From Podarcis cretensis (taxonomy: Eukaryota): a DNA stretch of 64,000 nt. Every line of letters starts with the position of its first letter. Position 1 is the stretch's first letter. Shown here piece after piece: positions 5,200 through 61,918 of the stretch. The DNA is taken from assembly GCA_951804945.1 (NCBI GenBank), contig OX638150.1:41912001-41976000 (forward strand), given 5' to 3'. The translations under genes were made by a program, and so were the position numbers. Under the pieces are notes generated by a model. That model saw only the letters and a program-made list of their open reading frames with translations, searched no databases and was not told the origin of the DNA.

Positions 5200-5990
5200 C
5201 ATTGGAATGCCAAAACCACTTCCGCCCTGCAGAGGAGGTGGGATTGTGGGCGTCACGACCCCACCATGCGCGCTGCAGCTGGAGCCCAGCCCCCGCATGA
5301 TTGGAGGAATCCCTGGCCGCATCACCCCCTGGCCAGCCAATCGTCTGGCTCTGGGGGTGTGGCCTGCCCTATTTAATGCAAGCGTGGCTGGGGATCTCCC
5401 TCTTTTCCCGCCTACCAGCTGTTCCTGTTTCCCACCCTCCCACCTTTTAAGGTTTTCATTCCTTGACCTTGCTATGGACCTTGGTTGGTCGCTGTTGAGG
5501 GACCTGGTAGGAATTTTCTCACTTGGCAAATTGGCACCAGCCACTTGGTTTTCGCCTACCTCGTAGCAAATCGTCACAACTTTCTTGGTATTGGTGGTTA
5601 GGCATTGGTATTGGTATTGTTTTATAGATGGAAGAGGGGAGGAAGCACATCACCTGCCCTGCATATTGAAGGGTAGTCCAATAAAGTATTCCGGGGGGCG
5701 TGGCCCTGTCCGAAGCCTCTGGAGGTGAGGGCCTAAGGCACACCCCCGAGCGGTGACCCCGGGGGAGTTCCTAGTTGATGTGCATCAGCAGGACTCCCCC
5801 TACTGGTGGTTTACCCTTCCCGGACTTCAAGCAAACAGGCTGAAGCTGGATAGTCTGTTAGGAGCAATGCCTAAGCCAATACTGCTCATCACCTGTAACC
5901 AATAAAGTTGTGGCCTTATTTAGCCCATTAACCTTAATAATTGTGTCATATGTCTTTATTTCCGGGGGGGGGGGGGGACTCGCCACGCAA
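5200..5990 (+). mobile_element. LTR-like terminal-repeat remnant, probably of a DIRS/Ngaro (tyrosine-recombinase) retrotransposon; left boundary approximate
   Basis: CpG-rich; shares ordered blocks with 55987-56839 (GGTCGCTGTT, CGTAGCAAAwCGTCACAACTTT, CAATGCCTrAGCCAA, AATAAAGTTGTGGCC, terminal CCACGCAA); no TSD seen. Superfamily assignment is inference. Confidence 0.55.
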
Positions 5991-8900
5991 TGAACCAGTA
6001 GATGGTGCCAGGGTGGGGTGGGGGCATCTCACTCAGCATTTTGTTCCCCAGTAGCCAGCCAGATGCCTATGGGCAGCCTACAAGCAGGTCCAGAGTGCAG
6101 CAATGCTCCATTGCTCAGCAACTAGCCTTTCAGAGGTCTATCAGCAGTGGAGATACAACAAAGCCATCATAGCTAATAGCCATTGGCAGCATGATCCTCC
6201 ATGAACTTCTCTAATCTCTGCTTAATAAGAACTATCTGCACAAGCTTTTTACATCTTCAACGTCCACATTGTTCCTTCTTTATGTCCACTCGGGGGCTGA
6301 GACCAAAATCAATTGCTTTCTCCGATAATATCCACTCCCTCCCCTGTCAGATGCAAGCCCTTCCCCAATGCTCGATGGTGCAGTGTGATTTCCCAGTGCC
6401 ATCTCTGTCTCCTCCACTTTCCTTCTTCCTTTCATGAACTCATCCGTTGCACTCAGTGGCAAAGTTTTGTTGTGCACCTCAAACAATGTCAGGCTCGGCA
6501 GAGTGCTTTGCATTACACACATATAAAAAATTTCTTCCCTGATACACAAGAGATCGCTCACAACCTGACAGCAGAGAAAAAGATGTGATGCATCTTGCAA
6601 ACAATGGAGTTGTTGGGGAGAGGGGTTGCAGCATCAGCGGAAAGCTTAAATTGGCTCCCTGGTGACAGCGCATAGAGCTGCAAGCGCTGCTCGGCTTCAT
6701 AAGAATTCTGGTCTGGTCTGTCCTCTTCGCATGATGGGGTGAGCGGAGATTAGCATTATGAAGGAATTGCCCCATCCAACACGTCTGCATTCATTACCAA
6801 AGCATTTATTAGGGATAAAGAAACCCAAATGGATATGTTGTGGAATGAACATTCAAAGGGCTCGAGCAGATGAAGTTAGCAGATAAAGATGTATCCCCTC
6901 TCCAGGGCTGCCGTGCAAACACATGTCTGCCCATAGATGGTTCTGCCAACATGGCTTCCAGAACAGATTACACACCTCAGCATCCTGATGGCAGTGAATG
7001 TACTGCCTGTGCTCCATGGGGGTTTGAGACAGGGCACCACTCCCAGAACAACGCCCATGGGATTGGCAGAAACCAGAGCATGGCAGTCAAGGTCTCTGAA
7101 AATGCTCAAAGGGTCCATGATTGCAGTGACAGGAGAAGAATTCAGAGGTCACGATCTGCCAGACCGTAAAAGTGGTCCATTGGGATCCTGCACCTGGGAT
7201 CAGCATCTCTACTTCAACAGGAAGCTTTTGTAGGCAGGTCTTGAAACCAGCATATTGCCTAGCATATAGGGTATTATTAGTCTCTTCCCAGTTAGGAATG
7301 CAGAGTGGATCTGGTGTGGTTTGCATGCACACATGCACATGCACACACACACTTCTTGGTAGCAAACAGTGACCCACATGCAACAGAACTTGGGGAAGAA
7401 TGGGAGAGACTCCTGATCCCAAATCTACAGGTTATCAACACAAATAAGTGGAAAGCGGGTCTGAAACTCAATACTCTGCCTCAATATTTCTTACTTACTT
7501 GCTAATTGACACACTAATTTGATAAAAAGCAAACATTTCTTCTCATTGCTGCAGTGTAGTCTGCTTGCTCAGCGCAACTGTTACTTGTTACTTTGGCCCA
7601 TTAGCAGCATTTTGCAAGGAGTCTAAGGGCAGGGAAGGGCTCTTTGCTAATTGATTTGGGAAATGTGCCTAATGCATGGCAGAGTCAGTGCAACTTAGGC
7701 TGCTGAGCGAGGCATTGGGCAACCCAGGAAACTTTTAGGCTCCCACCCACCAGCCTAATTTTGCCTCCTGCATTGCTTTGCTAGTTTGTTTGAATGCCAG
7801 AGGCCTTCAGAGACTAGGGAGATCTCTAGGTCCACTCTTTCCTTGGTATCACTTTCTTTGACGGCTTCCAGGATGTTGCTGTTTTCTGGTTCCCCCATGT
7901 GCAAAAAAATCCACTTCCCCCTAAAATCAGACATTTTGTGATAAGGAAAGCAAAGGGGAAATGTACTTAAAAGTGTAGGATGACAATTGCTTGAAACAGC
8001 ATTGAGTAGGGATATAAGAAGGTATTGATTTCTGTTCCAATGCATGTAAGTTGCATGCAGCACTGTTTCCATTCCACTGCAGTTTGGCTACTGTCAAAGC
8101 TATGTTACTTGTCTCACCATCCACTGTGGCAGAATCTTAAGTAACAAATTATGTTATTGTGATGTTATTCTACACCATTCATTTCAATGCAAAGGAAATG
8201 CATTTGTGTGCCTTTTGAGGACTGAAAACAGCAACAATAGCCCTGGGAGACCAGGGCACAAATCCATACTCAGCAATGAAGCTCACTGGGTGACCTTGGG
8301 CCATTCACGCACCTTCAGCCTCTGTTAGACACCTTTTGCCCACCCCCATATACGCATATATAGTTGGTGCTTGAGCGCGCATACATATATACACAGGCCT
8401 AAAAAAGTCTCCTTTTTCATTGTTCGTCTCTCCTCTGTTATGGGTAGCCTGGCATTTTATGTTCCACCCCTCCCATAAAGCAGGAAGGAATTACAAAGGG
8501 TTCAGCATAAGTCTTTGCCTGGTGGCACTGGAGACCATTAAATGCATAGCATGGCATTAGGCTGCTGCTTCTGGTAATAAAGAACAAATGTGTGAGAGTT
8601 CTGGCGAGAGCTGGGATTTAGCAAACACAGGGCTGCTAGCGTCACAGGCCTGCTTGGCTATTATGATTCAGGGGTAAATAATTCCCACGAATCATTTGTC
8701 TACATTGTCTGGAGAGAATGCTGTGGAATAATTTGAAGACGGGAAATGTTCAGGATGTGAAGTATGCACCGCCGAGTGCATTGTACCCAGCTTAGCGTCT
8801 TCTCGCCTTTGTTTGGCCCTCGTTACGGAGAGATCTGCATGGTTTGAACTTAAAATATGAGTGTGATTATCCAATCCAAATAAAAACCTCCGCAGAATAG

Positions 8901-12055: not shown

Positions 12056-12206
12056 AGGGCCATAGAGCATCTGCTTTGCATACAGAAGGTCTCAAGCTTC
12101 AATCTATTGAATCTCCAGGTAGGGTTTGGAGAGACGCCTTCCCTGGAGGACTTCAGTCAGTGCAGATAATATTCAACTCGATGGACCAATGGTACTCAGT
12201 ACATTG

Positions 12207-12453
12207 AAGAAGAAGAAGAGTTTGGATTTGATATCCCGCCTTTCACTCCCTTTAAGGAGTCTCAAAGTGGCTAACATTCTCCTTTCCCTTCCTCCCCCAC
12301 AACAAACACTCTGTGAGGTGAGTGGGGCTGAGAGACTTCAAAGAAATGTGACTGGCCCAAGGTCACTCAGCAGCTGCATGTGGAGGAGCGGGGAAGCGAA
12401 CCCGGTTCACCAGATTACGAGTCTACCGCTCTTAACCACTACACCACACTGGC
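12207..12453 (-). mobile_element. tRNA-headed SINE with (CTT)n tail (Squam3-type)
   Basis: Near-identical to copies at 24127 and 26409; A box TGGTGTAGTGG and B-box-like GGTTCGCTTCC on minus; TSD ACATTG (12201-12206 / 12454-12459). Confidence 0.85.
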
Positions 12454-15400
12454 ACATTGCAACTTCCTATGTTCCTAGAATAAACTGGAAGAGTTTTCAG
12501 CTTCAGTCTTAAACACACCAGGGAGGAACAGCGTGGATCTTACTTCTGAATAAACATTGATAGAATTAGACTGCCAGTGTTTTATGACAAGAGTTGCCAA
12601 TATTTTATGCCCCTAACAGCTGCATCGCAAGCATAAATTAGTGATGGCTTTTTCCATTGCTGAATCTTCATGCAAGGAAAAGCTGCTGTTTTTATGCAAC
12701 TTGTTAAAAGCACAAGAGCTCTGCCAGAAAATAAGTTGGCAAACTCTTTTATGACACAACAGTAGCTCAGGCTATAATGCACCATAAACATGGTGGAAAA
12801 GAGAACACGACAATAAATCATCATCATCTCATGACAGCAAGAAGAAACCAACTCCCTGCGGGGCTATAAAAATTTAAAACATTAAAAGCTAGTCAACTAG
12901 TTTTTAAAAGAACGGGTTGGAGGGTAGGGAAGGCCTCACTCAGAAATGTCTTCAGCATGGTATTGTTTTCTGGATTTGCTTGAACTACAGAACAAACTGC
13001 CAAAACGTGTTTAACCATTAAAACCATTCATGCTGCAATATTTATATGCTCTATTAATCATACATCAATAGATAATGGCCGAGGAGGCTGCATGTTTCTA
13101 GGAGTGAAGGAAGCAGGGAATGTTGCTCCTTCATAAAAGAATGACCTTCATTCATCCGGGAGCATTCATTTATAATCTTGCTATATCCATCGTCAACTTT
13201 AATAAAGTGTATATTTAATTATAAAGAGTAACACCAGCTCTTTGAACTCTCCTTGATTGAGTTATGGCAGACAGCTGATAATCTGAGCACTGCTGAATGG
13301 CTCCTGAGCAGGTCAAAGAGAAGCTTCCCATTGACTTAGGAGGAGCAGGACGGCGTCCTTTCTCTTCAACTTACTGAATTTTACAAGGCAAACTAATCTG
13401 ATTTCAGGCCTAACTTGTCTCCTTAGTGCTCAAATGCACACACACTTATGATCGTCAATGTCAGTTGAAATGGCCTAGACATGCAGCTATTCATACCTTT
13501 TGAAGAAAAATAAATAAATCAAGCACTGTAGGAGAATTCACTAGGCAGAGTGAAAAAGATGCAAGATAAAATGTGAGGATAGCAAAATCCTTTCTTCCAG
13601 AAAAACACTCCATTCTAACTCTCAACGTATTATGTGCCCTCAGTTTGTTACGTTTTGTTTCCAGTTCCAATTTAACCACATCTTCAGTCCACAGGAAGAG
13701 AATAAATAAATCTTCTACTTATTTATTCAAAATATTTTCATCTTGCTCTTCCAGAGTGGCTTACAGATGTCAGTGATAAGCGCCTGCCCTCAAGCTCACC
13801 ACCTGAAAGGCAAAGCACAAGAGGAAAAGGGATTGGGAGGGAGGAGGGGGAAAGTAAACCCAGGCAACCCAGGCAACCCATTCTCAGGGCTTATCCACAC
13901 TTCTGTTTGCAGAAAACCTGCAGTTTAGCACTGAATCTGAAACAGCAACCAGGTTTTCCATGGATTGCCATTTGTTCTGATTTAGAGCTAGAGAGCAAGT
14001 TTTCCAGGAGAAAGTGGCAGGGCAAAGGCAAAGCCACTCGAACCCATGTTTAGAAAGCACTGCTCAGACCCATAGTTTCTAGGCATGCGGCAAGCAGAAG
14101 TTTGAGCCCTTAGTTACAGAGTTTTTATGGTGTCTAGCTGGAATGGAATGAGTTTAAGAAGGGAAAGAGCCAGAAGTTTCTGGTCTCTCACCAAAGTCAC
14201 TGATGGAGTGATTGTAGTAGCGCAATATTGAATGTCACTTTGTATTTCTAACTGGGCAGTGGAGAGCGGAGGAAGGAACTTCTGAAGGACCTTTAGAGAT
14301 CAAAAGCTGTTCTAGCCTCCTCTTTACAAAGAGCATGAATTGCCTACACCCGGTTGTTTCTTTGGTTACATTATTCTTCAGAATTTATCACTATATCCTC
14401 CTCCATTTTGTCTTCTCACCAGCCACGGGATGTAGGTTAAGCTGAGGGATAGACCCAAGGGTAGGTCACTCAGTGAGCTTCATGGCCCAATATGGATTAA
14501 TATTTTGGCCCTCTACATATTTTGGCCCCACAAGCATTCATAAATAAACAAAAGGATAGAGAAACACCCTCTAGCTACTAGATTTCACTAACATGGCAGC
14601 CTTCATAAGTTACTGGACTACAACTCCCATCATTCCTGAGCACTGGCTGTGCTGACTGGGCCTAATGGGAGTTTGAGCCCAGCAACATCCAGAGGGCACC
14701 ATGTTGGCTACCCCGGTAGGAGACCATGCCAAGATGGTGAGCATAGATGTCTTGAGCCATAGTTGGAAAATGGTATCTGATGGCCTTGCGGCCCCTGGGA
14801 ACAAGAAGAGGCAGGACCACAAGGCCCAAGCTCAAGTGAATTACTGACTGTCTTTCTTCTTCCACCCTCATAGCTCCACCACCCAAGCACCCATATAACC
14901 ACTGCCTTTGCCTTTGCCCCTGCCTTTCTTCTTGGCAATTTCTCCTTTGTGTTGAATAAACTGAATATGTAATTTCATTTTCTCTCTTAGAGCATTAACA
15001 ACCTTGGGATTGTTCAGATTCACAATGAAGACAACAAACAAGTAATTACTGACAAACTGATATTGCTGTCGAGAGAAGAATGCAATTGATTTTAATTTCT
15101 TGTCAGTCCTGTTTATACTTCTGTTGCATTAGATATAATAAAGTGCTACGGTAGATTATGGTCTGCAATAAAACAGCGTGTGCACGTTTTTAAATAAAAA
15201 TTAGGCCCAACAAACTGCCTCCCGTACGAAAGAACATGCCTTCCCCCACAGTGTGCCCGCCTCCACTTAATTCACTTTGGAGCAGTACATCCATTTCACA
15301 GGGCTCCTGCGGGAACCACAATTCATACTCAGGCACTGAGATTCTCTCTGGGACAAGAATTTGGCTGAGGTGCAACCCTTTCTGTATTTGCCCTTCAAAT

Positions 15401-21408: not shown

Positions 21409-21807
21409 TGTCAGGGAACTGCCATCGGAGCCCAGGGAGGTGGCGAGGCTCCCAGACGCTGGGGAGGGAACCAGCAGGGGGAGAACTTCCACTGAGGAAG
21501 TAGAGGAGGGGGAAGTGTCGGAGGGAAGGCTCAGAGACGCTTCCAGCGAGAGCAGCGGAGAGAGCTCAAGACCTCCCATTGGGACACCCACTCTGCGCAG
21601 AAAGCTGTCGCGCAGGGAAGCTAGGCGGAGACTCTCAGTTAAGGAGCTTTTATGTTGGAAGAAATTCAGGAAACGCCCACTGACGGATTCTGCCAGCGAT
21701 TAAGACGGCCACTAAGTAAGGGCTGTCCGGCCAGGGAAAGTTTTAGCCAACTACTAAGCTTGGAGCGGTGTGGCGCTTACGCACAAGCAACCCCTTATCC
21801 CATTACA
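21409..21807 (+). mobile_element. Solo LTR (Gypsy/chromovirus-like) carrying a 97-codon open frame (21410-21703)
   Basis: TGTCAGGGA...TCCCATTACA termini; 5-bp TSD ATAAG (21404-21408 / 21808-21812). LTR orientation is inferred. Confidence 0.85.
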
Positions 21808-21986
21808 ATAAGCTTCTATTTTAACAGTCCTTATAACACAGATAGAAGGCCTCAGGTTCTATGTCACAAAAAAGCAGGATAAAAAAATCTAAGAAAATAA
21901 AATACAAACAAATGTTGGGAGTCCTAAAATTAAATATGTGGCCCCCTTTCCTCCTCATATCTAATGCGCTCCTCAGCTTTACCACT

Positions 21987-22925
21987 CTACTTATTCAACA
22001 TCTTTATCAACGACTTGGATGATGGACTCAAGAGCATCCTGATCAAATTTGCAGATGACACCAAACTGGGAGGGGTGGCTAACACCCCAGAGGACAGGAT
22101 CACACTTCAAAACGACCTTGACAGATTAGAGAACTGGGCCAAAACAAACAAGATGAACTTTAACAGGGAGAAATGTAAAGTATTATTGCACTTGGGCAAA
22201 AAAAATGAGAGGCACAAATACAAGATGGGTGACACCTGGCTTGAGAGCAGTACATGTGAAAAGGATCTAGGAGTCTTGGTTGACCACAAACTTGACATGA
22301 GCCAACAGTGTGACGCGGCAGCTAAAAAAGCCAATGCAATTCTGGGCTGCATCAATAGGAGTATAGCATCTAGATCAAGGGAAGTAATAGTGCCACTGTA
22401 TTCTGCTCTGGTCAGACCTCACTTGGAGTACTGTGTCCAGTTCTGGGCACCACAGTTCAAGAAGGACACTGACAAACTGGGACGTGTCCAGAGGAGGGCA
22501 ACCAAAATGGTTGATGCCTTATGTGGAACGGCTAAGGGAGCTGGGCATGTTTAGCCTGGAGAAGAGGAGGTTAAGGGGTGATATGATAGCCATGTTCAAA
22601 TATATAAAAGGATGTCACATAGAGGAGGGAGAAAGGTTGTTTTCTGCTGCTCCAGAGAAGCGGACACGGAGCAATGGTTCCAAACTACAAGAAAGAAGAT
22701 TCCACCTAAACATTAGGAAGAACTTCCTGACAGTGAGAGCTGTTCGACAGTGGAATTTGCTGCCAAGGAGTGTGATGGAGTCTCCTTCTTTGGAGGTCTT
22801 TAAGCAGAGGCTTGACAACCATATGTCAGGAGTGCTCTGATGGTGTTTCCTGCTTGGCAGGGGGTTGGACTCAATGGCCCTTGTGGTCTCTTCCAACTCT
22901 ATGATTCTATGATTCTATGATTCTA
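21987..22925 (+). mobile_element. Young 5'-truncated CR1 LINE (ORF2 RT C-terminal part, 3' UTR, (ATTCTATG)n tail)
   Basis: LFNIFINDLDDG..KFADDTKLGG..HLEYCVQFWAP; a small deletion near 22514 shifts the frame to PY(V)ERLRELGMFSLEKRRLRGD; octamer tail ~22897-22925. Confidence 0.95.
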
Positions 22926-24126: not shown

Positions 24127-24390
24127 GAGCCAGTGTGGCGTAGTGGTTAAAGAGCAGTGAACTCGTAATCTGGTGAACCGGGTTTGCTTCCCCGCTCTTC
24201 CACATGCAGCTGCTGGGGGATCTTGGGCCAGTCACACTTCTCTGAAGTCTCTCAGCCTCACTCACCTCACAGAGTGTTTGTTGTGGGGGAGGAAGGGAAA
24301 GGAGAATGTTAGCTGCTTTGAGACTCCTTAAGGGGAGTGAAAGGCGGGATATCAAGTCCAAACTCCTCCTCCTCCTCCTCTTCTTCTCTT
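24127..24390 (+). mobile_element. tRNA-headed SINE, same family
   Basis: GAGCCAGTGTGGCGTAGTGGTTAAGAGC head through ...GGCGGGATATCAAGTCCAAAC and (CCT/CTT)n tail. Confidence 0.85.
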
Positions 24391-26209: not shown

Positions 26210-26720
26210 GTGGCTCAGGAATTGGTTAAGTAGCAGGAAGCAGAGAGCAGGAATAAATAGACAGTTTTCTGAATGTAGGAATCTAGAAAGTGGAGTCCCC
26301 TAAGGATCGGTTTTGGGACCGGTACTTTTCAATTTGTTCATATACATGCTAGAGTTTGGAGGGAACAGTGAGGTAGCCATGTATGCCAGTGATGCTAAAT
26401 GGTTCAAGAAGAAGAAGAAGAAGAAGAAGAAGAAGAAGAAGAAGAAGAAGAAGAAGATTTGATATCCCGCTTTATCATTACCCGAAGGAGTCTCAAGGCG
26501 GCTAACATTCTCCTTTCCCTTCCTCCCCCACAACAAACACTCTGTGAGGTGAGTGGGGCTGAGAGACTTCAAAGAAGTGTGACTAGCCCAAGGTCACCCA
26601 GCAGCTGCATGTGGAGGAGCGGAGATGCGAACCCGGTTCCCCAGATTACGAGTCTATCCCTCTTAACCACTACTCCACACTGGCTCTCTCAAGGTCATTA
26701 AACCAAAAGGAATTAGTGAA
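26210..26720 (+). mobile_element. Degraded CR1 reverse-transcriptase fragment split by the SINE
   Basis: Translates WLSSRKQRAGINRQFS..SGVP*GSVLGPVLFNLFI..EVAMYASDAKWFK|VIKPK, a decayed GVPQGSVLGP..FADD region. Confidence 0.8.
26409..26688 (-). mobile_element. tRNA-headed SINE, same family, nested in a CR1 fragment
   Basis: (GAA)n tail ~26408-26457; body matches 12207-12453; TCAAG on both flanks. Confidence 0.85.
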
Positions 26721-28368
26721 GAGTGTTAGTGTATAAGAGTTAATGCATGTGGGGGGGAGGACAAGAAAGGGTTAATTTAGGTGTGCTTGACCTGCACGTG
26801 CAGCTAGTTAAGTGTGAGTCAGCAAACTTGTGAGAGTGAGTCAGAGAGTGACTCAGCACAAAAACAAAGTATAAATACCCTTGTGCCTATAGCCACTTTG
26901 CCTGGGTCTCCACTCCTCAGATAGAACCTAATCTGTGTAGGAATGCAGCGTGTTTCTGGAAGCACATTTCATTACTTTGGCTGTAAGGACAGAGGTAGGA
27001 TTACTTGTTTATGCTACAACTGTCCGTAGCTCCTAAGCTTGCACAGCCTAGATAAACTTCCAAGAAATATCTGCCACCACGGCTGGGCCCCTTCCTCATT
27101 TCAGGTGTTAAGTACAAACCAAGTGCCTCCATTCATCCGAACTGGAAGGAAAAACCAATTAGTTGCTGGCCATAACCATATATTGCTACAATAACCTTGT
27201 AATTGACATTTCTGGGGTATTATGGAGGCTGAAAGTCATAAACTTAATGAAAGTATGTTTATTGCACTTCAGCTTCATCTCTGATTAAATCAAATTTGCA
27301 TAATGGAAAGTTATTAAATTTCCATGTTTCTAATTTCCTTTAAAAAATAATTTTAAAAAATAGCAATTCAAAGACTTTGTTTATAGAAAAGCTCGATGGT
27401 GCATAGGGGTGCTAGAGAACACACGCCTTAGCTGAAAAATGTTTTTAATAAATTGCCTCAGGTGGAGCAGGCATGTTGCATTGTTCCATCTTTGAAACGA
27501 TTCTCTCTTTCCAACAAATCGGAAAGTGTCCCTGCTCATGTCGTTAAACTGTTTCTGGGCAAGAGTGTGAAGGTGTGCAGCGCTGGAAAAGTAGTCTATC
27601 AGTGCCAGACGAGCCGTACCTCTGCTCTCCCTCGGCCTTGCCATCCTGCCACATTGGCAAAGAATTTTAAGTAGTAGGCATGTTTATTATTATTTTTTTA
27701 GAAGGGAGCATGTTTTTTCTTTTTGTTTTGTTTTTTTGCCAAAGGGTAAATTATTCCTGCTAAGGGTTGAGTTTGGAGCAGTTTTTAATCGCATATTAAG
27801 CAAAACCTTGTGGGTTGGGAGTGTGTGTGTGTGTGTAGGTGGTGAGATTGCTCCTCTTCCCAATAGAGCATTAATGTAAACTACGGTATGTTCTCTGACA
27901 CAGCAGATCATCAAGCAGCCCCTGTAGAATGAAAGGCATTCTTGTCTGTTTGGAACACAGCATTCAATAACTTTCCAGATTTCCTTGGTTCCCTTTTCTA
28001 TCCTAAGCTGGACAAAGTTGCTGAAACATTTCAGCATCAGTTAGCAAAAAAATGCCCTCATCTGAACCTGTTCTCTCCCTTCCTCCTCTGTGCAGAGCTC
28101 TCAAAGTCTAGCTATTTCTCACATCCCCTTTGCACTGGTGAGTTTGGGATGCTCAGCTAAATGTACCTCACGCAGGGACATGCCCACACCCCTCCAGGTC
28201 TCTAGAATGGAACACTTAAAGAGCTCCCACTAACAACATTCCCATTTGGCACAGAATGAAACAGATGCCCACCTCCATGCATGAGAAGAGGTGCCTTCTC
28301 CATCATGCAGGAATTGTGAATCCAAGCAATTTTCTATAAGCCCACATCATCAAAGTCTGTGTTTAATA

Positions 28369-28611
28369 CAGTGGTACCTCGGGTTAAGTACTTAATTCTT
28401 TTGCGGATGTCCGTTCTTAACCTGAAACTGTTCTTAACCTGAAGCACCACTTTAGCTAATGGGGCCTCCTGCTGCCGCCGCACCGCCGGAGCACGATTTC
28501 TGTTCTCATCCTGAAGCAAAGTTCTTAACCCGAGGTACTATTTCTGGGTTAGCAGAGTCTGTAACCTGAAGCGTATGTAACCTGAAGCGTATGTAACCCG
28601 AGGTACCACTG
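28369..28611 (+). mobile_element. Tigger/pogo-like (Tc1-mariner) MITE, copy 1
   Basis: TIR CAGTGGTACCTCGGGTTA / TAACCCGAGGTACCACTG; TA TSD. Confidence 0.9.
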
Positions 28612-30954
28612 TATATGGATGGCTCTGAAGACCTGGTACATGCACTACAAGTGATTGGTTTTTGTTTTTATAGATTCACTATTTTTATTCCCCCCCTCTC
28701 CTTCAGTAAAAGATTCCAGGGTGGCTGGATAAGATTTATTCAACCACGTGAAGAAGCCCAATCTCAAAGCCTATTAACAGTGCAAGACTATACATGCCTA
28801 CAGAGAACTTAAGTCCCACTACGTTCACTAGGACATGCTCAAATATATAAGATTTCCAGCTTAGCCACCCAACAACAAACTTCTTATTTAAGGGCCCTTG
28901 AATTCAAGGAAAAGATCTCCAGCGTCATTTAAATTCACCAGTGCATCCCAATCTAGGGTGCCAATTTTTCATTTTCATTCTCATTCGCCCACCACTCTGG
29001 GTCTCTGGATCAGAATATAACAAGCAGAGGAAGATTATGACTTTAAGATTATACTCCACTTAATGAAGTAGATATGAAATTGCAATGTACATTTGGTGTC
29101 AATGGAAAGTTTCCATCAGCCTCTAATTTGATGTACCCATTTGTTTATTTCATGCAGCTGAAAATATGAAAAGAGGCTCCAATAAAATATTCAAGTCTTG
29201 AGAGAAATATGCTTTGACTTCTAGCTTTCCGTTCTATCCTTCTTGCACCAGCTTTGCTCCTACTTGGGCGATGCCCATGTACTTACAAGAAAGGATTCAT
29301 TAGTGCTAATCCGAGTGATGGGCACATGTGGTGCATGGTGGCTAACAGGGAATCCATGCCGCTACAGAGTGCAGCTGCTCCTTTTCTACAGTGCTGTGCA
29401 AGCACTAATTTATGAGCCCTGAAGTGGCAACAGGGGCGTTTTTAAGCCAAGCCTTTTATGGCATAGATCATAGCAGGCGGGGCGTATGACAGATGTCTTC
29501 ATTAGGAAGGGCCAGAGAGCAGCCCCGGTCCTAGTCAGTTACGCATGGACATCCATGGCTGAGTGGAGGAAACAGAAGCAATAAAACTTGGGCAGAGCGG
29601 TGACTCAAATGCACAAAGAAATTCTAGGCAGAAATGGAGCAGCTTGCTGGAGGGGCAGCGATGGACTTCATCCTGCTGCTCCAGATTCTTCACTTTAAAA
29701 AGGGAGGAGTCAGCAATGAAACAGAGAATTAAAGGCAGCTTTCTCAAGATGCACGTGCTGCAACGGTAAAGGAAGACAGAATAATCAAAGGAAGAAAGGA
29801 CCTCCCAACTGGATCATAGACCTCCACCTTCTGGCAAAGGACTTCTGGACCTTTCATTGGCAGGCAAAGACCAACCAACAGTCTCAATAGTTACATCTCT
29901 GGCCACCATTTCAATGAGAAGAATACCTGTGTAAAGTTTTTAGTATTGACATGACATAATGAACAAAATGGGTAAGGACAAAATTGCCACTTTGTTGTTC
30001 TCTCCCATCCCCCCCACCCCCAGGTTCTTCCATAATATAAAAGCAATTATTTAATTTCAAATGGCATGACCCTATGAAATGTTTAAAAATGCAAATAAAT
30101 ATGGCCCAAAGGACATTGGGCATTGATTGGGAGAGTGTCTCAGAACAGGAGAAAGGTGGTAGCATCTTCTGAACCCTGCCATCCCTCTGCCTGAGTGTCC
30201 TTGTTTTTTCTAGTCAAATGATATACCTCTGTTCATTCAACACAGATGCTTGCCGAAAGCCTTGTATGAGCTGCAAAGCAAGGCTGAGCACAAAGCCCCC
30301 CCCCCTTCTTCTTGAACGTGCACTGCTGACATATGGATAGCTTTTGCTTGTATCCCCAGTGGTTCACACAGTGGCTGGTTCCTCCTCGGCTGCCCCAGCC
30401 CTAGTATTTATCCAACTCACTGGACAGTCAGATTGTCATTCCCAGCAGGCAAGCTGTTAAGAATCACAAATTTTAGCCTTGCCATGTAAATAGCAAGGGA
30501 CAAGACACCTGGCGCTTCCCAAATTGCTTGGCACAGGCAGAGAAGACGGAAACAGCAGACAAGGAGGTTTGCTCAAATTTCTACATATGAGCTCAGATCA
30601 ATGGCAAGTCATGAATGAACAGCTGCAAGTGGAGGAAATGAAACAGTGGCACTCTGCATACAGAGAGCATCCATGAGAGAAATACACAATATCCAGCAGC
30701 TGAAAAGGATGGGAATTTAGGCTGAACCTAAGAGACAGATACATAGTCACAGAACAATCAACACAGGGGGGAAATTCAGTCGCCATGGCTGTTCCCCACA
30801 TGCAGCCCCCATAACTATGTGCATGGTTCTGAATCCTAGACATAACGTGCAAACATGGCAGCAGTCTTCTGGCTGGTGTGATCACTAGTCTGGGGAGGAA
30901 CAGAATTCAACCAAATCCCTACAAATTCCCTATTCATGAACAGAAGATCGGTAT

Positions 30955-33217: not shown

Positions 33218-34062
33218 TTCTTTTGAAGAGCAGGCTAAAAATACTTTAAATAAATAGAATGTAAAACAACCCATTGGAACTGAATTGTTGTGCTGCACAC
33301 CTTTCAGAGTCATACTAATGCAAGCCAATAGAAAAATTACTCTTCCACATTCTATTCAATGGTATAATAACAAGGTTTCTTGGCTGTAGTGATTTTCAAA
33401 ACCCCATATTTTAAAGAGGCAACCACCCTAGCCCTGAAACTTTCCTTGTTTTAGATTTTAGCTCTAGAACCAGATCAGTCAACAAGGGTAAAATAAAAAG
33501 CTTTTTGCAGTCTCCCTAAACAGATATCCCTGGGTTTGTTTTTTTTAAGAGGCTATGATCATTTCCACAAAATTAATAAATATATCCGGTCATTAGTGAT
33601 CTGCCAAGGGAAGGCAGTTGTGGAGGGATGCAGTGGCTAAAGAGGTTTGTCTCAATGAACATCCACCTACGTCCAAAACTGAGGAATCCATTCTGCGCAA
33701 TCTAAGGTCAAAGGCTCCCATCAGCCCCTTTACTATGGGAAATTGATAGACGCAAAGGCAACTGCCTTGTCTCAGGTCAGGCCAGTTGTCCATCTAGCCC
33801 AGCATTTTCTGCAGGCAGAGGACTTTGTTACAATCTGATTCTAAAAGAGAACTGTGCCAGGGTTTGGAATGGAGAAGGATCTTTGTGCATACATGCACGC
33901 ACCTAGGATGCTGAGCAGAAGAGAAGGACATCTTCAACATTTCAGAGAAAAGCTCTATTCTGAGGTACTTATCTTCATCAGGTTCTTCCATTAGTACCAA
34001 CAGGACACACAGCAGTAGCCTGAGTAATCAATGCCCCCTTTCCCTAAACAGCAGCAGCTGTA

Positions 34063-34279
34063 CAGTGGTACCTCGGGTTAAGAACTTAATTCGTTCTGGA
34101 GGTCTGTTCTTAACCTGAAGCACCACTTTAGCTAATGGGGCCTCCTGCTGCCGCCGCCATGTGATTTCTGTTCTCATCCTGAAGCAAAGTTCTTAACCCG
34201 AGGTACTATTTCTGGGTTAGCGGAGTCTGAAACCTGAAGCGTCTGTAACCTGAAGCATCTGTAACCTGAGGTACCACTG
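34063..34279 (+). mobile_element. Tigger-like MITE, copy 2
   Basis: Same TIRs and TA TSD. Confidence 0.9.
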
Positions 34280-36103
34280 TACTGGGAAAAGGAGACACTT
34301 TCTGGATCGCAAAGAAAGAGTTGCTTATTCTAGGTTATTATATCTGCAGGGAAAGAGGAACTCAGTAATGAAAAGCACAAAGCAGACCTCACCAAACCAC
34401 TGCTCTGGACACAAAGCAAAGAGGAGTAACTTGGGAAACATAAAAGCTTGGTGAAAACCTTCCCTTCCCCTGCACTGCTTTCACCCAACATTGCCATTCC
34501 TCTATACTAGTCTGCATCCGCCCTCTAGTGGCCAAGCCTGAAATGGGCTCGAGAGGATAAGAACACCGATGCTTGCTTAGGAACCCTGTTGCCAATAAAG
34601 GACCAGTTATGTTGTTGTTCCTGTTGCTGTTTAATATATACTGCTTATATGTCAAATTGCTTCTCAGTGTTTACAACTTAACATCAATCCATAAGGACAC
34701 TACAAAAAAGCCATGCACAATAAAAGCTGCCTTCTACGAGACATACCAGAAAACCCATTGATCTCCTTCCATAGGTCATGGAATCAACCCCCTGCAATGC
34801 AGGAATCTTTTGCCCAATGTGGTCCAGAGAGTGCAGTTCAGGAGGCAGACTCCCAATGCACCTCTGTGATTCAACAAAGTTCCTTTCAGCTCTCTTTGTC
34901 ACCAGCAGCTACTGGTTATGATAGCTGTACACTGCCTCCAGGGGAAAAAACCAGCATGCTTAAAAATACTAGTCACTGGGGAATGAAGGTGGGAGAGAAT
35001 TACCGGTACTGCCCTCTTGTGCTGCTTGCTGGCTTCTCATACCACCGTGGGAAACAAGGAGGCTGGGCTAGCATCGCCTTTGGTCTGATCCAGCGGCCAG
35101 GCTCTTCCAGTATTCAGCATGCATACACATCCAAGGCCACAAAGTGTGGCAGGCAATCTGCCACGCATTTGCTTGGTGATTTTTCTTTTTCTTTTGCAGT
35201 ATTCTGGAAGAGCTGTCTTATCAGCTGCTGTACAATGCAGGCAACTGATAAGTGGATGCTAAGCTGAAATCTTCACCATATAACTAAATGTTTCTTGAAA
35301 ACTGAAACAGAAAAATGACATGTTTTTACACATTACACACACACCACATTACAAAATATGGTGATGAAAAGAATTAAAAGAAAGCCAAAAGTTGCAAAAT
35401 GCAAATATTAATGAGCCAAGAAGATCATACTGTGTCTGAATGTCCTGGCTTTCCTCATCAGGCTTTAAGGTTTTTAGTTTAGTCTCAGAGAAACAGCATC
35501 GCTCTCGGTCAGTCCACGCACGCCTGGACTTTCTTTGTACCACTTTCACAGGCTTAGCTGGGGCCTGTAAGAAAGCTGGCTTCCCTTTGATGTCAGAGCA
35601 CTGGGGCTCAGGTCACCTGCGAGACTCTGCTTGGCTTGGCTCAGCACCATCCTTTGTAGCTTTTGGCCCAGGTGACTACAGAATGCCAGCACTCTCAAAA
35701 CTGCATTTGTGGGTGTGCACTGTCAAGTCTTTCCCTGAATTGGCTCTTTGTGAAGGCATCAAAGAGGAAGATTTTCTTATCCACTAGTGTTCTATAATGC
35801 AAACAATCTTCTGATATCAGTTCGCTTGAAAGTCAGGCATGCAGTCATTTTAGACAATTCCAATTATTTTAGAAAGCACAATTCAGAGTACTGAAAAGCA
35901 TAAAAGATCACTCAGCTGTTACAGAAAAGAAGAGAATCACTTTTAAACTAGAAAGTTCCTTATAAAGTTGAATTTTGTTACAGAATTTTGTCTCTGCCTT
36001 GCATTATTTACACATATAATGCCTTGTACAGAATTTTTCTCAGTTTGGCATGAATTAGCATGCTAGCGTTTTGGTTCTGCAAAACAAATCCCACTGTTCT
36101 CTT

Positions 36104-39006: not shown

Positions 39007-39442
39007 CCTGGTGGGACTCGGCCATAGCTCCTTCCTGCTCCTTCCTACATACTGCAAATGGATTGAGAAGGTGACATCACCGATAAGGCTGTCTGTAAAT
39101 TCCTTCAGATCCGGTCTAACAGATGGTTGCATCATCAGTTGAGGGAAGCAGCATCTGGACCTATTCTCCACAACAGATCATCACTATGACAGTCTCTGAA
39201 GGGAGCATTATCACAGCATCGATCATCTGTTCACCAAGTTTTGTGAGCTAAACTGCTGTACACAGTCTCATTACCAAGTTTCTGCGCTGTGGTGCTGCAT
39301 GTGGCCTTCCTTAGCACATAGTTAAACAGCCAGTTAAAACATTACAGAAGATAGCAATAGTCTTTCAGTAATAAATATGGTACTAATGTTCTGTGTCAGG
39401 GTCACCCACAGAACCTCCTGTGGTACCTACAATCTCAGTATA

Positions 39443-39657
39443 CAGTGGTACCTCAGGTTAAGATCTTAATTCATTCCGGAGGTCCATTCTTAACCTGAAA
39501 CTGTTCTTAACCTGAGGTACCATTTTAGCTAATGGGGCCTCCCGTTGCCGCCACGCAATTTCTGTTCTCAACCTGAAGCAAAGTTCTTAACCTGAGGTAC
39601 TATTTCTGGGTTAGCGGAGTCTGTAACCTGAAGCATCTGTAACCCAAGGTACCACTG
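39443..39657 (+). mobile_element. Tigger-like MITE, copy 3
   Basis: Same TIRs and TA TSD. Confidence 0.9.
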
Positions 39658-40590: not shown

Positions 40591-41407
40591 GGGGTTCAGC
40601 TCTTTTTCAAAAGTCTAAACGGGTCCCAATTAGCAAATCTTGTTCTCTGTAAATAGTATGTTAAGGTTAAAAGATTTGTAAAAAAGATTTTTATCTTAAC
40701 CAAATTTTAGATTGACCAGCACTAATTCAGATACTAACCTCTGTGTACTCTGTCTTTTCTTTATTTTTCCTTCCCCTTGTCTAGAAAAAATACCATCAGC
40801 TTCACTGGGCTGTGTAAAGTAAAAATTAGTCACAATTAAAAAAAAAAGGAAAGACCATTTTGTGTGAGTGACTGATACTACTTTTTCTGTAGCTAATGTT
40901 TATTTTTCTGCATCTCCTGTCATAACCAGATAGTAGTGCCAAAAATCTGAACATAGCAGAAAGCTATTCAAACTGTTGAAGAAAATAGGTCTTTGTTGAA
41001 ACATCATTCAGTGAGATCCAGTGGTCCATTTCACACATAATTAAACAATGACTTAGTGTTTTAAGACTGAGGCACAGGAAACCTTGGGCTTATGAGCTTC
41101 CTTCCCCCATCCTCTGGCAAAGTGCAAGGAGTAGATTGGAAGCTTCAGTCATTTTAAATTAACCACAGTTTAATTTTATGTCTGAATGAAAAATCATGGT
41201 TAACCTTATCCATAGCTTCTTTAATACAAACCACCTTCATAAACTATGGATTGAAGGTGGCTTGTTTCCCCTAACCATAGCTAAGATTAATCAGTTTCAT
41301 ATGCCATGGCAAGCTATGGTTAATCTAAAATGGCAGTAAAATCTTTTGAATCTCTTGCAATAATACCAGAGGAGGAGGGAGGGTTATGCAAGACCATGAA
41401 GAGGGTA

Positions 41408-41732: not shown

Positions 41733-42848
41733 GTTAATCTAAAATGACAGTAAAATCTTTTGAATTTCTTGCAATAATACCAGAGGAGGAGGGAGGGTTA
41801 TGCAAGACCATGAAGCGGGTAGATAATGCTAATTATCTAGGGATGTAGGCCTGTCCAGGCAGGTCTTGTACATGGAGCTGAAATCCTTCCGCGCTGTTCC
41901 TGAGGAAGTTGTGATCAGGTAGCACACCTTGTAAAATCCTTTCTTTCACTTTATTTGCGCTCAGAACAAAGTAACATTGTCACAGGTGCACATCAGTTAA
42001 GAGAAGCTGTCCCACACAATGTAAACTGCAGATAATATAAGCTGCACAAAAATGGTTAGACCTGCCTTCTGCTCAATCCTACACAATTGAAAAGAAATTG
42101 CAGTAAGCCGTATCAAATAAACACCTTCATTAAATGCTTAAAGTGAAGCCATCGGGATTAAAACAAGTGTGTCAACAAGTAAAACAAAGACATCCAGATA
42201 TAATCTTGTGGCAGGATGAAGCAATTACTGAGGGGGCACGTAAATAAAGAAATGCAACAAATCCCTTTCCTTTTATGCATCGACAAGTAAGCAGTAGCAA
42301 CGAGAGAACAATTAATTAATGCACAAAAGCTAGCTTCAGCTAGTGGCATATTTTGGCTGCCATCCCAAGAACATAAGCAGAGCCTCAACAGACCCCAGGC
42401 CTAGGAAGCTGGATCACAGCTGGAAGAAAGCAGGCACCTACTTGGTGCTAAAATAGCACTACCAGCTCCAGCAATTTCACCACACTTCTCATAATACCAC
42501 TGTGAGATGAAAGCCCTTGAGGGAGCACTCAGAAGGTGAATGTGGGGCCAGCCCCCCACCCCGGGTGCCAGAGAGGTTTGGTTTCTTGGTTCCCTTGAGC
42601 TTGTGCTGATGCTCTGTGGAGGAGAAAAGTTGATGAAAGATGGGAAGCTCCAGTCAATAACTAGAGTTAAGAACTGTTGTTCACTTTTTCAGATTTTAGC
42701 AGTTGTAGAAAAGATGTTGAGTGGTCACATAGTGATGGTAATATGTAGTTTGGTCCAAAGGTGGCTGGTGCCCATTGTGACTGGTAGAGTGGAAGGCAGG
42801 GAGGCCAACAGTAGGTGGAGCCAGATCCAATGACAAGAAGAGTCAACT

Positions 42849-42922
42849 GTTGTTGTTGTTTAGTCGTTTGGTCGTGTCCGACTCTTCGTGACCCCATGGA
42901 CCAGAGCATGCCAGGCACTTCT
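42849..42922 (-). mobile_element. Severely 5'-truncated BovB 3' end
   Basis: (GTT)n tail plus TAGTCGTTTGGTCGTGTCCGACTCTTCGTGACCCCATGG; 11-bp TSD AAGAGTCAACT (42838-42848 / 42923-42933). Confidence 0.85.
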
Positions 42923-45900: not shown

Positions 45901-46379
45901 AGGGCAAGCTAAGCCAATTGCCCTCACTCTAAATGCACACCTTCACTGCTGCCCAACCCTGTGGTGGGCTGCTACACTTGCATACGCTTTCAAGTCACCT
46001 TCAAAGAATTGTCAAAAGTGGAGGCAATTTTCAGTGCTGCTGAAAGTGTCCCTGAACAGCAAACCCCATTCTAAACTCATTTCTAAAAATATTATCCAGT
46101 GGTTTATATGGATGTTATGGAAAGAAAACAGAATAAAAGCCAAGAGAAGTATCACAGTTATTTGACTACCAGGAGTTCCACCCAGATCCCTTTTAGTTCC
46201 CAGCAGCCTAATCAACTGTTCAGATGCCTGGGATTAGACTAAAGAGATTCTTTGGGATTCTATGAAGAGTTCTTAGGCTGGGGTAGCAGTAGTGTCCAGC
46301 AGCCTGAATTGCTTTTGGGTGAGAGTGAAAAGGTAATTAAAGTTACAATTAAGATTACACTTCATAAATTTGTTTAGTA

Positions 46380-46624
46380 CAGTGGTACCTCAGGTTAAGT
46401 ACTTAATTCGTTCCAGAAGTCTGTTCTTAACTTGAAACTGTTCTTAACCTGAAGCACCACTTTAGCTAATGGGGCCTCCTGCTGCTGCTGCTGCGCCGCC
46501 GGAGCCCGATTTCTGTTCTTATCCTGAAGCAAAGTACTTAACCTGAAGCACTATTTCTGGGTTAGCGGAGTGTGTAACCTGAAGTATATGTAACCTGAAG
46601 CATATGTAACCCGAGGTACCACTG
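46380..46624 (+). mobile_element. Tigger-like MITE, copy 4
   Basis: Same TIRs and TA TSD. Confidence 0.9.
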
Positions 46625-48048
46625 TATATTATATCCCCCCCCCCCAGTGTTTTTGAAACGTAGGTGTTAGCATGGACAGTGTCAGTTACCGCTATACATT
46701 TTTCAGTGTTTCACATTATACTGCATAATATATACCTCTCAGCTAAGGTTGACCATTTAAATATTCGTGTCCGAGTTTATATTTTATGTCTTCCAAATCT
46801 GCAGCAGCCCTGAAAAAGTTAAAGCGTTATTTTCCCACCCCCATCATCAAAATGCGCTTGGGCCACTTACAGGTATCAATAAATCATTACCTCCGAGTAC
46901 CAGCTTGAGGCTTTGCCTCTTCTCTCATTCTGTTTAAACCAGCAGGAGGATCTGTGACAGTGACAGGTTTGCCCTCTTGTCATGGATCTGGCCGCTTAGT
47001 CTCCGCTCTCTGCTAACCAAGGACAGTGACAGAGCCAGGCAGAGAAGTTCATAGCTAGTGACATCTCCTGTCGGTGGGAAACAGAATGGCCTTGTTATAT
47101 CGGGGCCAAAGGGAGAGCATCACTGGGGTTAAAGAGTACATGAAATTTAGCAGGGTACCTGGTCCAGGCAAAGGAAGGGAAGGGACACTGATAACATCTT
47201 TCTAGAAGGCAATTGTACCATATGGAAGGTGCACAATAACCTATTTGTCCACCTAGGCAGAGCCTTCCTTGGGCAGAAAAGAGTCTTTTCTGCCATCACA
47301 TGCTACCCGATCCTTTCAACTGTGCTCCCTTACTGAGCAGGGGTGGGGAACCTTTGGCCCACCAGTTGTTGCTGAACAAAATCTCCCATCAGCCGCAGCC
47401 GGCATGCTCAATAGTCAAAGCTGCTGGGATTTGTAGTCCAACAACATCTGGTGCTCCAAAGTGCTATGGAGCCTTCACAGAAAAAGTTCCCAGCAGCCTT
47501 CCATTTTGCAGACTGAATGAACTCCAGGTTTCTTGGGATTTTTTCCTCCCGCCCTCCCGCATGGATCATTAGTCCAGGAGAACAGGAGGGATGGGAAGGA
47601 GACTGCACTCGGAATCTATTGCAAGTGTCCAAATCCAACAATATTCTGGGAGAACCATTCATGTGTAGAGCCAGCCCTCAAAAGCAATACAGATGTTTGG
47701 TAGTGGCTTGCATAGGAATAACTATGTACCCAACCACTGCCTGGAAGTAGCTCAGTGAATAGCACTGAACATAAACGTGTGTGATCAAGACCAGAATACA
47801 AGTGAGATAAGCTAATATGGCACTGTAAACTACTTTGTGTTTTTGTGTTAGAATAACCAGTTTAGTGGTGTAAGGTTTTGAGAGGTTTAGCCTATTTTAT
47901 ATATTGAGAACTGTTGAGCATGTCTAACCTGCAACGCTTGAGGATTAAGCACTCTGAATGAGGCTGTGGTTCCCCATGTTTGGGATGACATACACATTTG
48001 CTCTAGTCCAGCAGGGAGATAGAATGAAGGAGCCACTTCACACAGGCT

Positions 48049-55439: not shown

Positions 55440-55986
55440 GACTAGAAGCCATTCAGAAGCCACTCTGAGCTTTCTGGAGGAAAAGTGGGATATAGTTTGA
55501 AATATAAAGTAAATCATCAGGAAGTGACCCTTGGACTTTTCAAAAAATCTATGGTATGTTGCCATAGAAACCCCTTTAGAAAGATAGGGCATCCCAAGGG
55601 TCCAAGATTAGCATTTTGTTTGTTGACTTGTAGTCCTAAAATGAAAAAGACATAACTCTTTGCTGCTTTCTAAAATATGCTAAGCAACAATTCTGCACCT
55701 GAGCCACCAGTACAGATGAAAATGTTGGTAACAGACCATGAAGAGAGCATCCCAATGAAAAGAGCATCTGCTGTTATGTTTCAGAGCTTTGACATGTGGC
55801 TGATACAAACTTTGTCAGAGAAATGAAGACTATCCTGGAATAAATAGTAGCCTCTTTCCGTTCTACATTCATTACAGCTTGAATTTATTTATTTAAAGCA
55901 TTCTGCACCACATTTCATAAGATCAGGTTCCACAGTGGAGTACAATATAGAATATTTAAAACAAAATCTAGTACAATAAAATGCTA

Positions 55987-56839
55987 ATGACCGCTCCCCA
56001 CTTAAAACGGGGGGCGCCTTTTGCGTGGACGCGTGCAGCCCTGGATCTGGAGTGGCCCCATCAGCATAGGCTTTGCCTTCCCTCAGGTGGGATACCTGGA
56101 GGTCCCCGCCTAACCCCAGTGAGTTGTCCAATCCCACCTGGGGGAAGCGTTGCCAGGGAAACCAGGCCAGGTAAGGGGAGGGATTACCTGCCCACACAAT
56201 AGAGGGTGGATCTTACTTGTTAATCCTCACTTGGCTCCAGAGCTTCTCCCACCCTACCCACCCTCAGTTAATGTCTTCTTTTGCAGGTTAACTTTTCTTC
56301 ATAGGTTTTGCAGGTTAACCTCTCCACAGGTATGCGGGCGCTGCTACGATAAGGTCGCTGTTAAAGGGCCGGAAAGGAATTTCCCTGCATTGGCAGGTTT
56401 CGCCTTTCCCGTAGCAAAACGTCACAACTTTGGCGGTATCAGGACTTGGGCGGAATCCTTTAGTCCATCTTCCTCTTTGCGGCGGCGATACCAAGGTTCC
56501 CCGTTAAAGGGGTTTTTGAAGGGAGGCTTTGGCCGTACGCCGAAAGGTCGTCATTGCTCTCCCCTGCGGCGGCGTAACGGGGGCGGCTATCTCTGCTTGA
56601 ACATATGTTCTCCAGAGCCGGCCCATCCCCCACACACACACTGGATAGCCCTGATGCTCCCTAGGTCCCCGGCTGGGGACTAGGGAGGGAGAACGCCCAA
56701 TGCCTGAGCCAAGGTCTACCCACATTTGAAATTTAATAAAGTTGTGGCCAATTTAATCCCATAGCACGTTGTCTAGAGTCGTTATTCCACATGACGGGGG
56801 GGACCACTCGGGATCTGGGGACTCCGCCTGTCCACGCAA
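55987..56839 (+). mobile_element. Second, divergent DIRS/Ngaro-like terminal-repeat remnant
   Basis: Same motif order as 5200-5990; AATAAAGTTGTGGCC 56735-56749; 10-bp inverted repeat TTGCGTGGAC (56021-56030) / GTCCACGCAA (56830-56839); no TSD. Confidence 0.55.
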
Positions 56840-57139
56840 CAGTACAATCCTCTCCTCACAATACTTTTTGATGGCTGTGGGTGGGTAGGATACTGCTTAG
56901 TCTCTTCTCCACCAACCTCCACTGGTAGCCAGCAGAAAGCCCTGAAACAGAGTGGGGGTACCATGCTGGTGGCTTTGGATCTACTGGATTCCTGGACCCT
57001 TCAGCTATGCCAGCCTGCAGCTATAGCAGAAGGATGTGGGCAAGGCACTTGGATCAGTGCGGGAGACTACATGGTCTCTAGACCCTTGCCCCTTGTGGCT
57101 GATTAAAACAAGCAAGGAGGCAATAGCCAGCTGAGCTAC

Positions 57140-60669: not shown

Positions 60670-60704
<35 letters not shown>

Positions 60705-61735: not shown

Positions 61736-61767
<32 letters not shown>

Positions 61768-61875: not shown

Positions 61876-61918
<43 letters not shown>

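Follow-up and report, generated by a model that had tools for sequence, protein, structure and literature searches.

Retroviruses pass a duplicated poly(A) signal by means of folded repeat regions, as described for the polyA hairpin of HIV-1 (PMC2645353) and for the Rex element of HTLV-1 and the R region of foamy virus (PMC3694450). Among tyrosine-recombinase retrotransposons, solo AB repeats of Ngaro elements have been reported (PMC8547959), and in Xenopus DIRS-53_XT an A region of 236 bp and a B region of 152 bp together make up 388 bp (PMC9210276). Integration of YR elements leaves the same trinucleotide at both ends, NTT in 23 of 28 DIRS1-like elements (PMC3266345, PMC7192593). The Ngaro layout holds B twice and would therefore hold the poly(A) signal twice, such that the first signal must be read through if genomic RNA is to be made. 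To our knowledge, no RNA mechanism has been described by which the genomic RNA of split-direct-repeat retrotransposons passes the first B repeat and ends in the second. Nothing on an RNA mechanism for B-repeat read-through was found in a literature search that lay mostly outside subscription papers, nor was a comparable structure in DIRS-order repeats found in a search for which most subscription papers, as well as Repbase and Dfam, were beyond reach.

The locus considered here lies in a stretch of 64,000 nucleotides of Podarcis cretensis DNA (hereafter the window), for which a sequence-only reading had proposed a multi-stem RNA fold shared by two divergent retroelement copies, the second of them at 56 kb. 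The present analysis supports a plus-strand RNA fold, tied to the 3' end and common to two divergent repeats of retroelement type; the architecture is probably real and selected and is larger than had been proposed, its putative function resting on two copies. The 56-kb copy is genuine, with nhmmer E-values of 1.5e-14 for the element and approximately 5e-8 for the motif alone, while the next nhmmer match in the window after the two motif copies has an E-value of 1.3 or worse. BLAST, nhmmer, pattern scans and a covariance model found no further copies in the whole window, leaving just two. Specifically, the covariance model returned 21 other window matches at 16.8 bits or less, against 137-167 bits for the two copies, and its top non-training match is the complement at 5890-5937. 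Two pattern scans of bacterial and archaeal genome contigs gave 0 matches each. The two repeats and the main elements of their layout are as follows.

5206..5991, plus strand: copy 1, a non-coding solo terminal repeat, probably from a tyrosine-recombinase (Ngaro-type) retrotransposon, with AAT at both ends
5337..5376, plus strand: putative promoter of copy 1, with a CCAAT box (5337) and a TATA-like TATTTAA (5370), from a pattern scan
5430..5445, plus strand: pyrimidine-rich island common to both copies, just past the putative start site
5865..5879, plus strand: shared island CAATGCCT(A/G)AGCCAA (b*), paired within the domain II rod, its copy-1 register ambiguous
5901..5914, plus strand: AATAAA poly(A) signal at 5901-5906, its last three bases shared with segment a* (5904-5914)
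5925..5962, plus strand: putative cleavage region and GU/U-rich downstream element of copy 1
55986..56840, plus strand: copy 2, a divergent solo repeat of the same kind, with AAT at the left and AAC at the right end

Both repeats share a common order of promoter motifs, pyrimidine island, fold, CAATGCCT(A/G)AGCCAA, AATAAAGTTGTGGCC, GU/U-rich tract and the end CCACGCAA. CCAAT and TATA-like motifs are present in both copies, the TATA-like box of copy 2 being poor, and in both AATAAA is followed by CA 20-25 nt on and then by a GU/U-rich tract; the sequence of this conserved poly(A) block had no occurrence in the literature searched. The distance from TATA to AATAAA is 515-531 nt in the two copies. 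Within it, the fold lies approximately 100-120 nt downstream of the TATA-like box, a relation that had been missed, and 318-332 nt upstream of AATAAA, in agreement with the spacing of about 330 nt claimed from sequence. The right end of copy 1 is common with copy 2, its 5' 200 nt align at chance level, and its left end is inferred from a short common start and a terminal hairpin alone. Copy 2 is flanked by an 8-bp duplication (55970-55977 / 56841-56848) that permits an alternative left end. Close to the copy-1 poly(A) signal, 5925-5932 can pair with 5907-5913 as an alternative local hairpin.

Several further features of the repeats were observed. Copy 1 only has a second AATAAA (5680), and the surrounding 5678-5703 holds CCAATAAAGT, repeating 5899-5908, followed by TTCCGGGGGG, resembling 5960-5974; this stretch is a compressed mimic of the copy-1 3' end, situated inside domain II. 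In copy 2, a 27-nt tandem duplication of the splice-acceptor-like TTTTGCAGGTTAAC, followed by a donor-like CAG/GTATG, occupies 56279-56335 just 5' of domain I, and is absent in that form from copy 1. A stable hairpin covers the CCAAT region in both copies (5300-5399, z -4.2; 56075-56174, z -3.4) with no common sequence, and a small hairpin stands at the inferred left end of each. Copy 2 also has a short inverted repeat with a 10-nt core between 56018-56041 (position +33) and its right end at 56819-56842, while copy 1 instead carries a complement of its own right end at approximately 5381-5410.

The DIRS/Ngaro-like label given to these repeats stands in part: their ends fit a tyrosine-recombinase (DIRS-order) element, but the family is unproven because coding domains are lacking near both copies, though such a lack is expected of a solo repeat. 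None of the 53 frames of at least 50 aa near the copies matches Pfam, with gag, RT/RNase H and tyrosine recombinase frames not seen among them, and translated searches of both copies gave nothing; a search against all representatives gave two weak multi-stretch matches (E 2e-8 and 4e-4; 38% identity). DIRS1-type long inverted repeats are absent from both copies, the longest terminal inverted repeat, confined to copy 2, measuring 24 nt at 75% with a 10-nt core; a DIRS1-like structure, with terminal inverted repeats of tens to hundreds of bp and an internal complementary region, was rejected, and a Ngaro/PAT-type solo repeat is therefore the sole fitting version within the DIRS order. Only solo units occur in the window, with no long direct repeats inside them. 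The ends, of which the left ones are inferred, read AAT..AAT (AATG) in copy 1 and AAT..AAC in copy 2 and correspond to NTT on the opposite strand, whereas the NTT rule is described for the sense strand of DIRS1-like elements. We take Ngaro-type solo repeats as the best fit for both copies, a reading modestly favored on the strength of the trinucleotide ends, the reported Ngaro solo AB repeats, and the lack of both TG..CA ends with a 4-6 bp duplication and long inverted repeats; weighing on it are the weakly defined left ends, the 8-bp flanking duplication of copy 2 and the 388-bp A+B of Xenopus.

An origin as solo LTRs, from an ERV or Gypsy element of the integrase type and with the RNA module seated in an unusually long R region, would account for the promoter-to-poly(A) layout and for the TG near both inferred left ends; CA is moreover a possible terminus of copy 2, close to whose ends a 10-nt inverted repeat is found. 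Such an origin is nonetheless rather unlikely, given that TG..CA ends come without a 4-6 bp duplication among the best 15 candidates per copy, and that 515-531 nt from TATA to AATAAA compares with R regions of 193 nt in foamy virus and 228 nt in HTLV-1 (PMC3694450). A Troyka LTR (CG..CG termini, 3-bp duplication) was rejected, as the ends of both copies do not fit it. The fold itself, here designated domain I, is composed as follows.

5469..5569, plus strand: domain I of copy 1, a three-way junction of P1, hairpin P2 (5487-5504) and arm P3
5512..5554, plus strand: U-rich internal loop AAUUUU/UUUUCG and a variable apical arm with the invariant AUUGGCA (5530-5536)
56342..56416, plus strand: domain I of copy 2, with P1 56342-56348/56410-56416, P2 56353-56370, P3 56371-56377/56403-56409 and P4 56384-56397

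Helices P1 (5469-5476/5562-5569), P2 (5487-5490/5501-5504) and P3 (5506-5511/5555-5560) were found where the sequence-only reading had placed them, as were the loop strands AAUUUU (5512-5517) and UUUUCG (5549-5554). The minimum-energy fold of copy 1 contains all three helices together with the weak inner UGGC/GCCA that had also been proposed, but this last pairing belongs to copy 1, since copy 2 has a different helix, CCUGC/GCAGG around an AUUG loop. Taken alone, domain I of copy 1 is of unremarkable stability (z -0.9 to -1.4): its P2 and P3 have a pair probability of approximately 0.48, both are lost if folding starts at 5400, and the upper stem above the U-loop consists of only two adjacent pairs (C-G plus U·G). 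Domain I of copy 2 is stable (z -3.4, 2/200 shuffles; pair probabilities 0.9-1.0), and its stem above the internal loop has 5 bp at a probability of 0.96-1.0. A minus-strand reading was rejected, being less stable in 2/2 comparisons of the motif and 2/2 of domain II.

Conservation between the copies is concentrated in this fold. Within the motif, 56 of the 75 aligned columns agree, while the flanks, which had been said not to align by eye, are indeed mostly unalignable, with 0.41-0.46 identity per column against 0.455 in a shuffled control; domain I has thus been kept in two copies while most of the remaining sequence drifted to chance identity. All 17 homologous pairs are kept, with 13 identical, two altered on one side to or from G·U, two altered on both sides and none broken, such that the claim that all helices persist with different bases is right as to persistence but overstates the difference. 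Both two-sided (compensatory) changes are adjacent and lie in P3, and the loop nucleotides GCUGUU, AAUUU, AUUGGCA and UUUCG are invariant across copies although the lengths of the linkers differ. In a neutral simulation with 6 substitutions in the stems, all pairs survived in 0.04-0.7% of trials, the helices having been preselected as fitting both copies. A column-shuffle control for covariation was not significant (128/500), as is expected for n=2, and with two copies only, covariation is not provable. We conclude with considerable confidence that the domain I fold is real and selected.

The 12 invariant bases that directly follow P1 are left unaccounted for by domain I. Eleven of them can form one strand of a predicted long-range helix, designated a/a*, which the sequence-only reading had missed and which is new here.

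5573..5583, plus strand: segment a, invariant in both copies, the 5' strand of the long-range helix, starting three bases past domain I
5573..5914, plus strand: domain II of copy 1, a rod and multibranch fold of approximately 340 nt closed by a/a* (z -5.83, 0/100 shuffles)
56421..56748, plus strand: domain II of copy 2, with a 56421-56431, b 56439-56452, b* 56694-56707, AATAAA 56735-56740 and a* 56738-56748 (z -3.66, 0/100 shuffles)

Segment a (5573-5583; 56421-56431) is complementary to a* (5904-5914; 56738-56748) in both copies over a separation of approximately 320 nt. The resulting helix comprises 11 bp (10 Watson-Crick, 1 G·U) in each copy, and a* overlaps the last three bases of AATAAA. 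When the 23 shared islands were shuffled, a helix as long as a/a* arose in 2/5000 trials, and only three complements of a exist on the plus strand of the window, two of which are the a* sites. As none of its pairs varies, a/a* has no covariation support; a change from U-A to C-G in b/b* was rejected as firm covariation, given that it needs a copy-1 register 13.6 kcal/mol less stable. On the minus strand domain II is weaker (z -2.50 in copy 1, -2.2 in copy 2). Among random 340-nt windows, 2/81 reach z -3.7 and 1/81 reaches -5.8, a comparison to be read knowing that the limits of domain II were picked after helix a/a* had been seen.

Folding predictions differ between the copies. In copy 1 AAUAAA is mostly paired (unpaired probability 0-0.14 at 5/6 positions), the closed state is ahead by approximately 8 kcal/mol, and forcing the hexamer open does not bring about the local hairpin. 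In copy 2 the hexamer is mostly open and, within longer contexts, a/a* has a probability of 0.02-0.27; here the two states are separated by 0.6-1.8 kcal/mol, with the open one slightly favored. The alternative state is one in which a folds back onto domain I, its first bases extending P1 (P0, with 5465-5467 in copy 1), and a* becomes a local hairpin (-5.2 and -6.5 kcal/mol). Because the closed state of copy 1 dominates by so much, a switch between open and closed is energetically supported in one copy only. In our estimation, helix a/a* probably does form in cells.

Since a/a* closes a stable domain of approximately 340 nt that overlaps AATAAA, domain I is most likely half of a 3'-end control module able to mask the poly(A) signal, with its U-loop beside the new tail. 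In the mechanism that we propose, the copies would be solo A-B remnants of a Ngaro-type element (A1-ORFs-B1-A2-B2), and domains I and II, adjacent in the transcribed part of the terminal repeat, would jointly control the 3' end of the element RNA. Helix a/a* would mask the hexamer in the manner of the HIV-1 polyA hairpin, and this masking would be lifted once segment a turns back to pair with domain I (P0) while a* forms its local hairpin, so that domain I, via P0, may help to set the frequency with which the poly(A) site is used. In the closed form the cleavage site would stand 10-20 nt from the foot of domain I, which would put the U-rich loop within reach of the newly made poly(A) tail, or of a 3'-end or export protein. 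We assign the mechanism as a whole a probability of roughly 0.45; pairing potential and conservation are its observed parts, and transcription, duplication in a full element and an effect on cleavage its presumed ones. That these relics keep the same fold, together with a long stem to the transcript-end signal, suggests an undescribed way to control, and perhaps protect, RNA ends.

Compatible with this 3'-end mechanism, in which domain II would deliver the tail, is the view of the sequence-only reading that domain I is an ENE-type stability element, whose U tracts would grip the poly(A) tail by forming a U·A-U triple helix with it. U tracts do oppose each other on both strands of the internal loop (4/4 in copy 1, 3/3 in copy 2), are predicted to be open (unpaired 0.97-1.0 in copy 2), and are closed on the upper side by a C-G pair; at the fourth position of copy 2, both strands have changed together, from U/U to C/G. 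Pairing of the Us with the loop As was rejected, as such registers cost 4.5-4.9 kcal/mol. Transposon RNAs are known to contain ENEs, a fish retrovirus among them (PMC7583470), and one ENE promotes mobility of Evade (PMC12501189). The short tracts and an atypical lower flank nevertheless keep membership from being established: 3-4 Us compare with five triples in KSHV PAN (PMC7583470), and an invariant AA/CG opposition separates the Us from the lower G-C pairs (GG/CC), whereas immediately adjacent G-C pairs are described as essential in Evade (PMC12501189). Double-domain ENEs tolerate an interrupted A-minor stem (PMC7583470). Also against the ENE view are the copy-1 upper stem of only C-G plus U·G, the invariant P2-loop and apical-loop nucleotides that it leaves unaccounted for, and the lack of an Rfam match. 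Moreover, domain I adjoins the polyadenylated 3' end only if a/a* forms, and otherwise lies 318-332 nt from AATAAA. Cofolding of oligo(A) with domain I gave no duplex, in programs that do not model triples. Domain I may thus work like an ENE, which we consider doubtful, and cannot be filed as one.

A compact protein-binding tertiary fold, recognized by the element's Gag, RT or recombinase for packaging or priming or by a host export factor, is in our estimation as likely as an ENE-like function, and thus likewise improbable. The U-rich loop would then be a stack of non-canonical pairs, and a kiss between the P2 loop and the apical loop, in which 4 pairs between GCUG and UGGC are possible in each copy, may add stability. 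The invariant loops GCUGUU, AAUUU, AUUGGCA and UUUCG with their variable linkers accord with such a fold, as do its position near the inferred RNA start and the splice-like signals just upstream in copy 2, but the kissing pairs are invariant, two of them are G·U, they would open part of P4 in copy 2, and a/a* is left unaccounted for. Small ribozymes typically have the size (75-100 nt), the three-way junction and the invariant loops seen in domain I, and ribozymes occur in other retroelements; still, processing of the element RNA by domain I as a self-cleaving ribozyme from an undescribed class is very unlikely, given that window-wide and local scans gave no Rfam match over the motif better than E 7, that the core patterns of hammerhead, hairpin loop B and pistol are absent from both strands of both copies, that a loose twister pattern matched once, outside the motif, that an HDV-like topology could not be constructed by hand, and that an intact poly(A) signal already supplies a 3' end. 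Slightest of all is the chance that conservation acts on DNA (factor or recombinase sites) or is accidental and the folds incidental. In its favor, ATTGGC reads as a CCAAT box in reverse, copy 1 by itself is of ordinary stability, and every one-sided change is a transition, with one of them at a CpG. Against it, both double changes preserve P3, every one-sided change yields G·U on the plus strand where the other strand would have A·C, domain II is more stable on the plus strand in both copies, and complementarity between islands arose in 2/5000 shuffles.

A similar motif had also been proposed for CR1 3' UTRs of turtles and frogs. The motif is absent from the 3' end of the window's own CR1, which has a short 3' UTR, and a literature search for strings of the CR1-type motif returned unrelated occurrences only. 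This CR1 (21934-22925) is 5'-truncated and broken, ends in ATTCTATG repeats and retains part of an RT of CR1 type (Pfam RVT_1, E 1e-7). Elsewhere in the window, 60001-63202 holds a GC-rich island and, at 62495-63202, coding exon 1 of a gene of the Shisa family (Pfam Shisa_N, E 1e-15), approximately 5.6 kb downstream of copy 2 and on the same strand. The RT fragment and the Shisa exon mark the window as vertebrate DNA. An element of approximately 200-250 bp, with CAGTGGTACC terminal inverted repeats and TA flanks, is present in five copies (28368-28614, 34061-34282, 39441-39644, 46378-46627 and 49234-49480), and is presumably a MITE of Tc1/mariner type. Other repeats include a related pair at 21514-21711 and 50517-50712 (approximately 75% identity; possibly solo LTRs), hairpin repeats at 55298-55445, 54984-55073, 14600-14689 and 2316-2414 with sub-threshold mir-5408/mir-1684 matches (probably MITEs), two SINE-like families at 87-95% identity (12206-12453, 24150-24377 and 26456-26684; 2027-2096 and 42853-42922), and an 89-nt direct repeat of 97% identity, its units at 41319-41407 and 41733-41821 being 414 nt apart.

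The two-domain module provides a concrete candidate RNA mechanism for read-through of the first B repeat in split-direct-repeat retrotransposons. A working clamp of 3-4 Us, if true, would widen the definition of ENEs and bring in vertebrate YR elements, and solo copies, having both a promoter and a poly(A) signal, could yield structured RNAs of approximately 520 nt or terminate host transcripts. If the small domain also sits in the CR1 3' UTRs of turtles and frogs, it would have been exchanged with CR1 LINEs. The most far-reaching version is that vertebrate YR retrotransposons carry an undescribed composite 3'-end device, in which a long-range helix masks or releases a duplicated poly(A) signal and, by folding out approximately 330 nt, brings the nascent tail to a minimal ENE-like clamp embedded in the junction, or else to a new ribozyme fold; we regard this version as a long shot. 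Should the mechanism be wrong, what is left is an ordinary conserved fold in a repeat.

Set beside described systems, the architecture is a variant of known retroelement 3'-end control structures and matches no Rfam family. As with the Ngaro solo AB repeats, the repeats here are non-coding solo units with no consistent target-site duplication, a short sequence common to the ends and no long inverted repeats, but they measure 780-850 bp against the 388 bp of A+B in Xenopus DIRS-53_XT and are known from solo units alone; the passages on Ngaro repeats in the two papers concerned describe no RNA structure (PMC8547959; PMC9210276). Like the ENEs of KSHV PAN, MALAT1, plant and fungal TEs and Evade (PMC7583470, PMC12501189), domain I has opposed U tracts between helices, in a retroelement RNA and upstream of a poly(A) signal. 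Unlike them, it has 3-4 Us, an invariant AA/CG and a three-way junction with other invariant loops, and it lies approximately 320-330 nt from AAUAAA in sequence, coming near it only via a predicted long-range helix. The Rex-responsive element of HTLV-1 and the foamy virus R region likewise represent long, heavily folded repeats tied to poly(A) site choice that bridge distant 3'-end signals, and the donor-like splice site upstream of the poly(A) signal, present in copy 2 alone, recalls foamy virus (PMC3694450); here, approximately 500 nt are involved as opposed to 193-228 nt, and the hexamer sits at the 3' foot of the fold. In the HIV-1 polyA hairpin (PMC2645353), a terminal-repeat helix overlaps AAUAAA as it does here, and could repress the first of two repeat copies, whereas in the present repeats the partner strand lies at a distance of approximately 320 nt instead of locally, the shared helix takes in just the final three hexamer bases, and the element that carries it is probably a YR retrotransposon.
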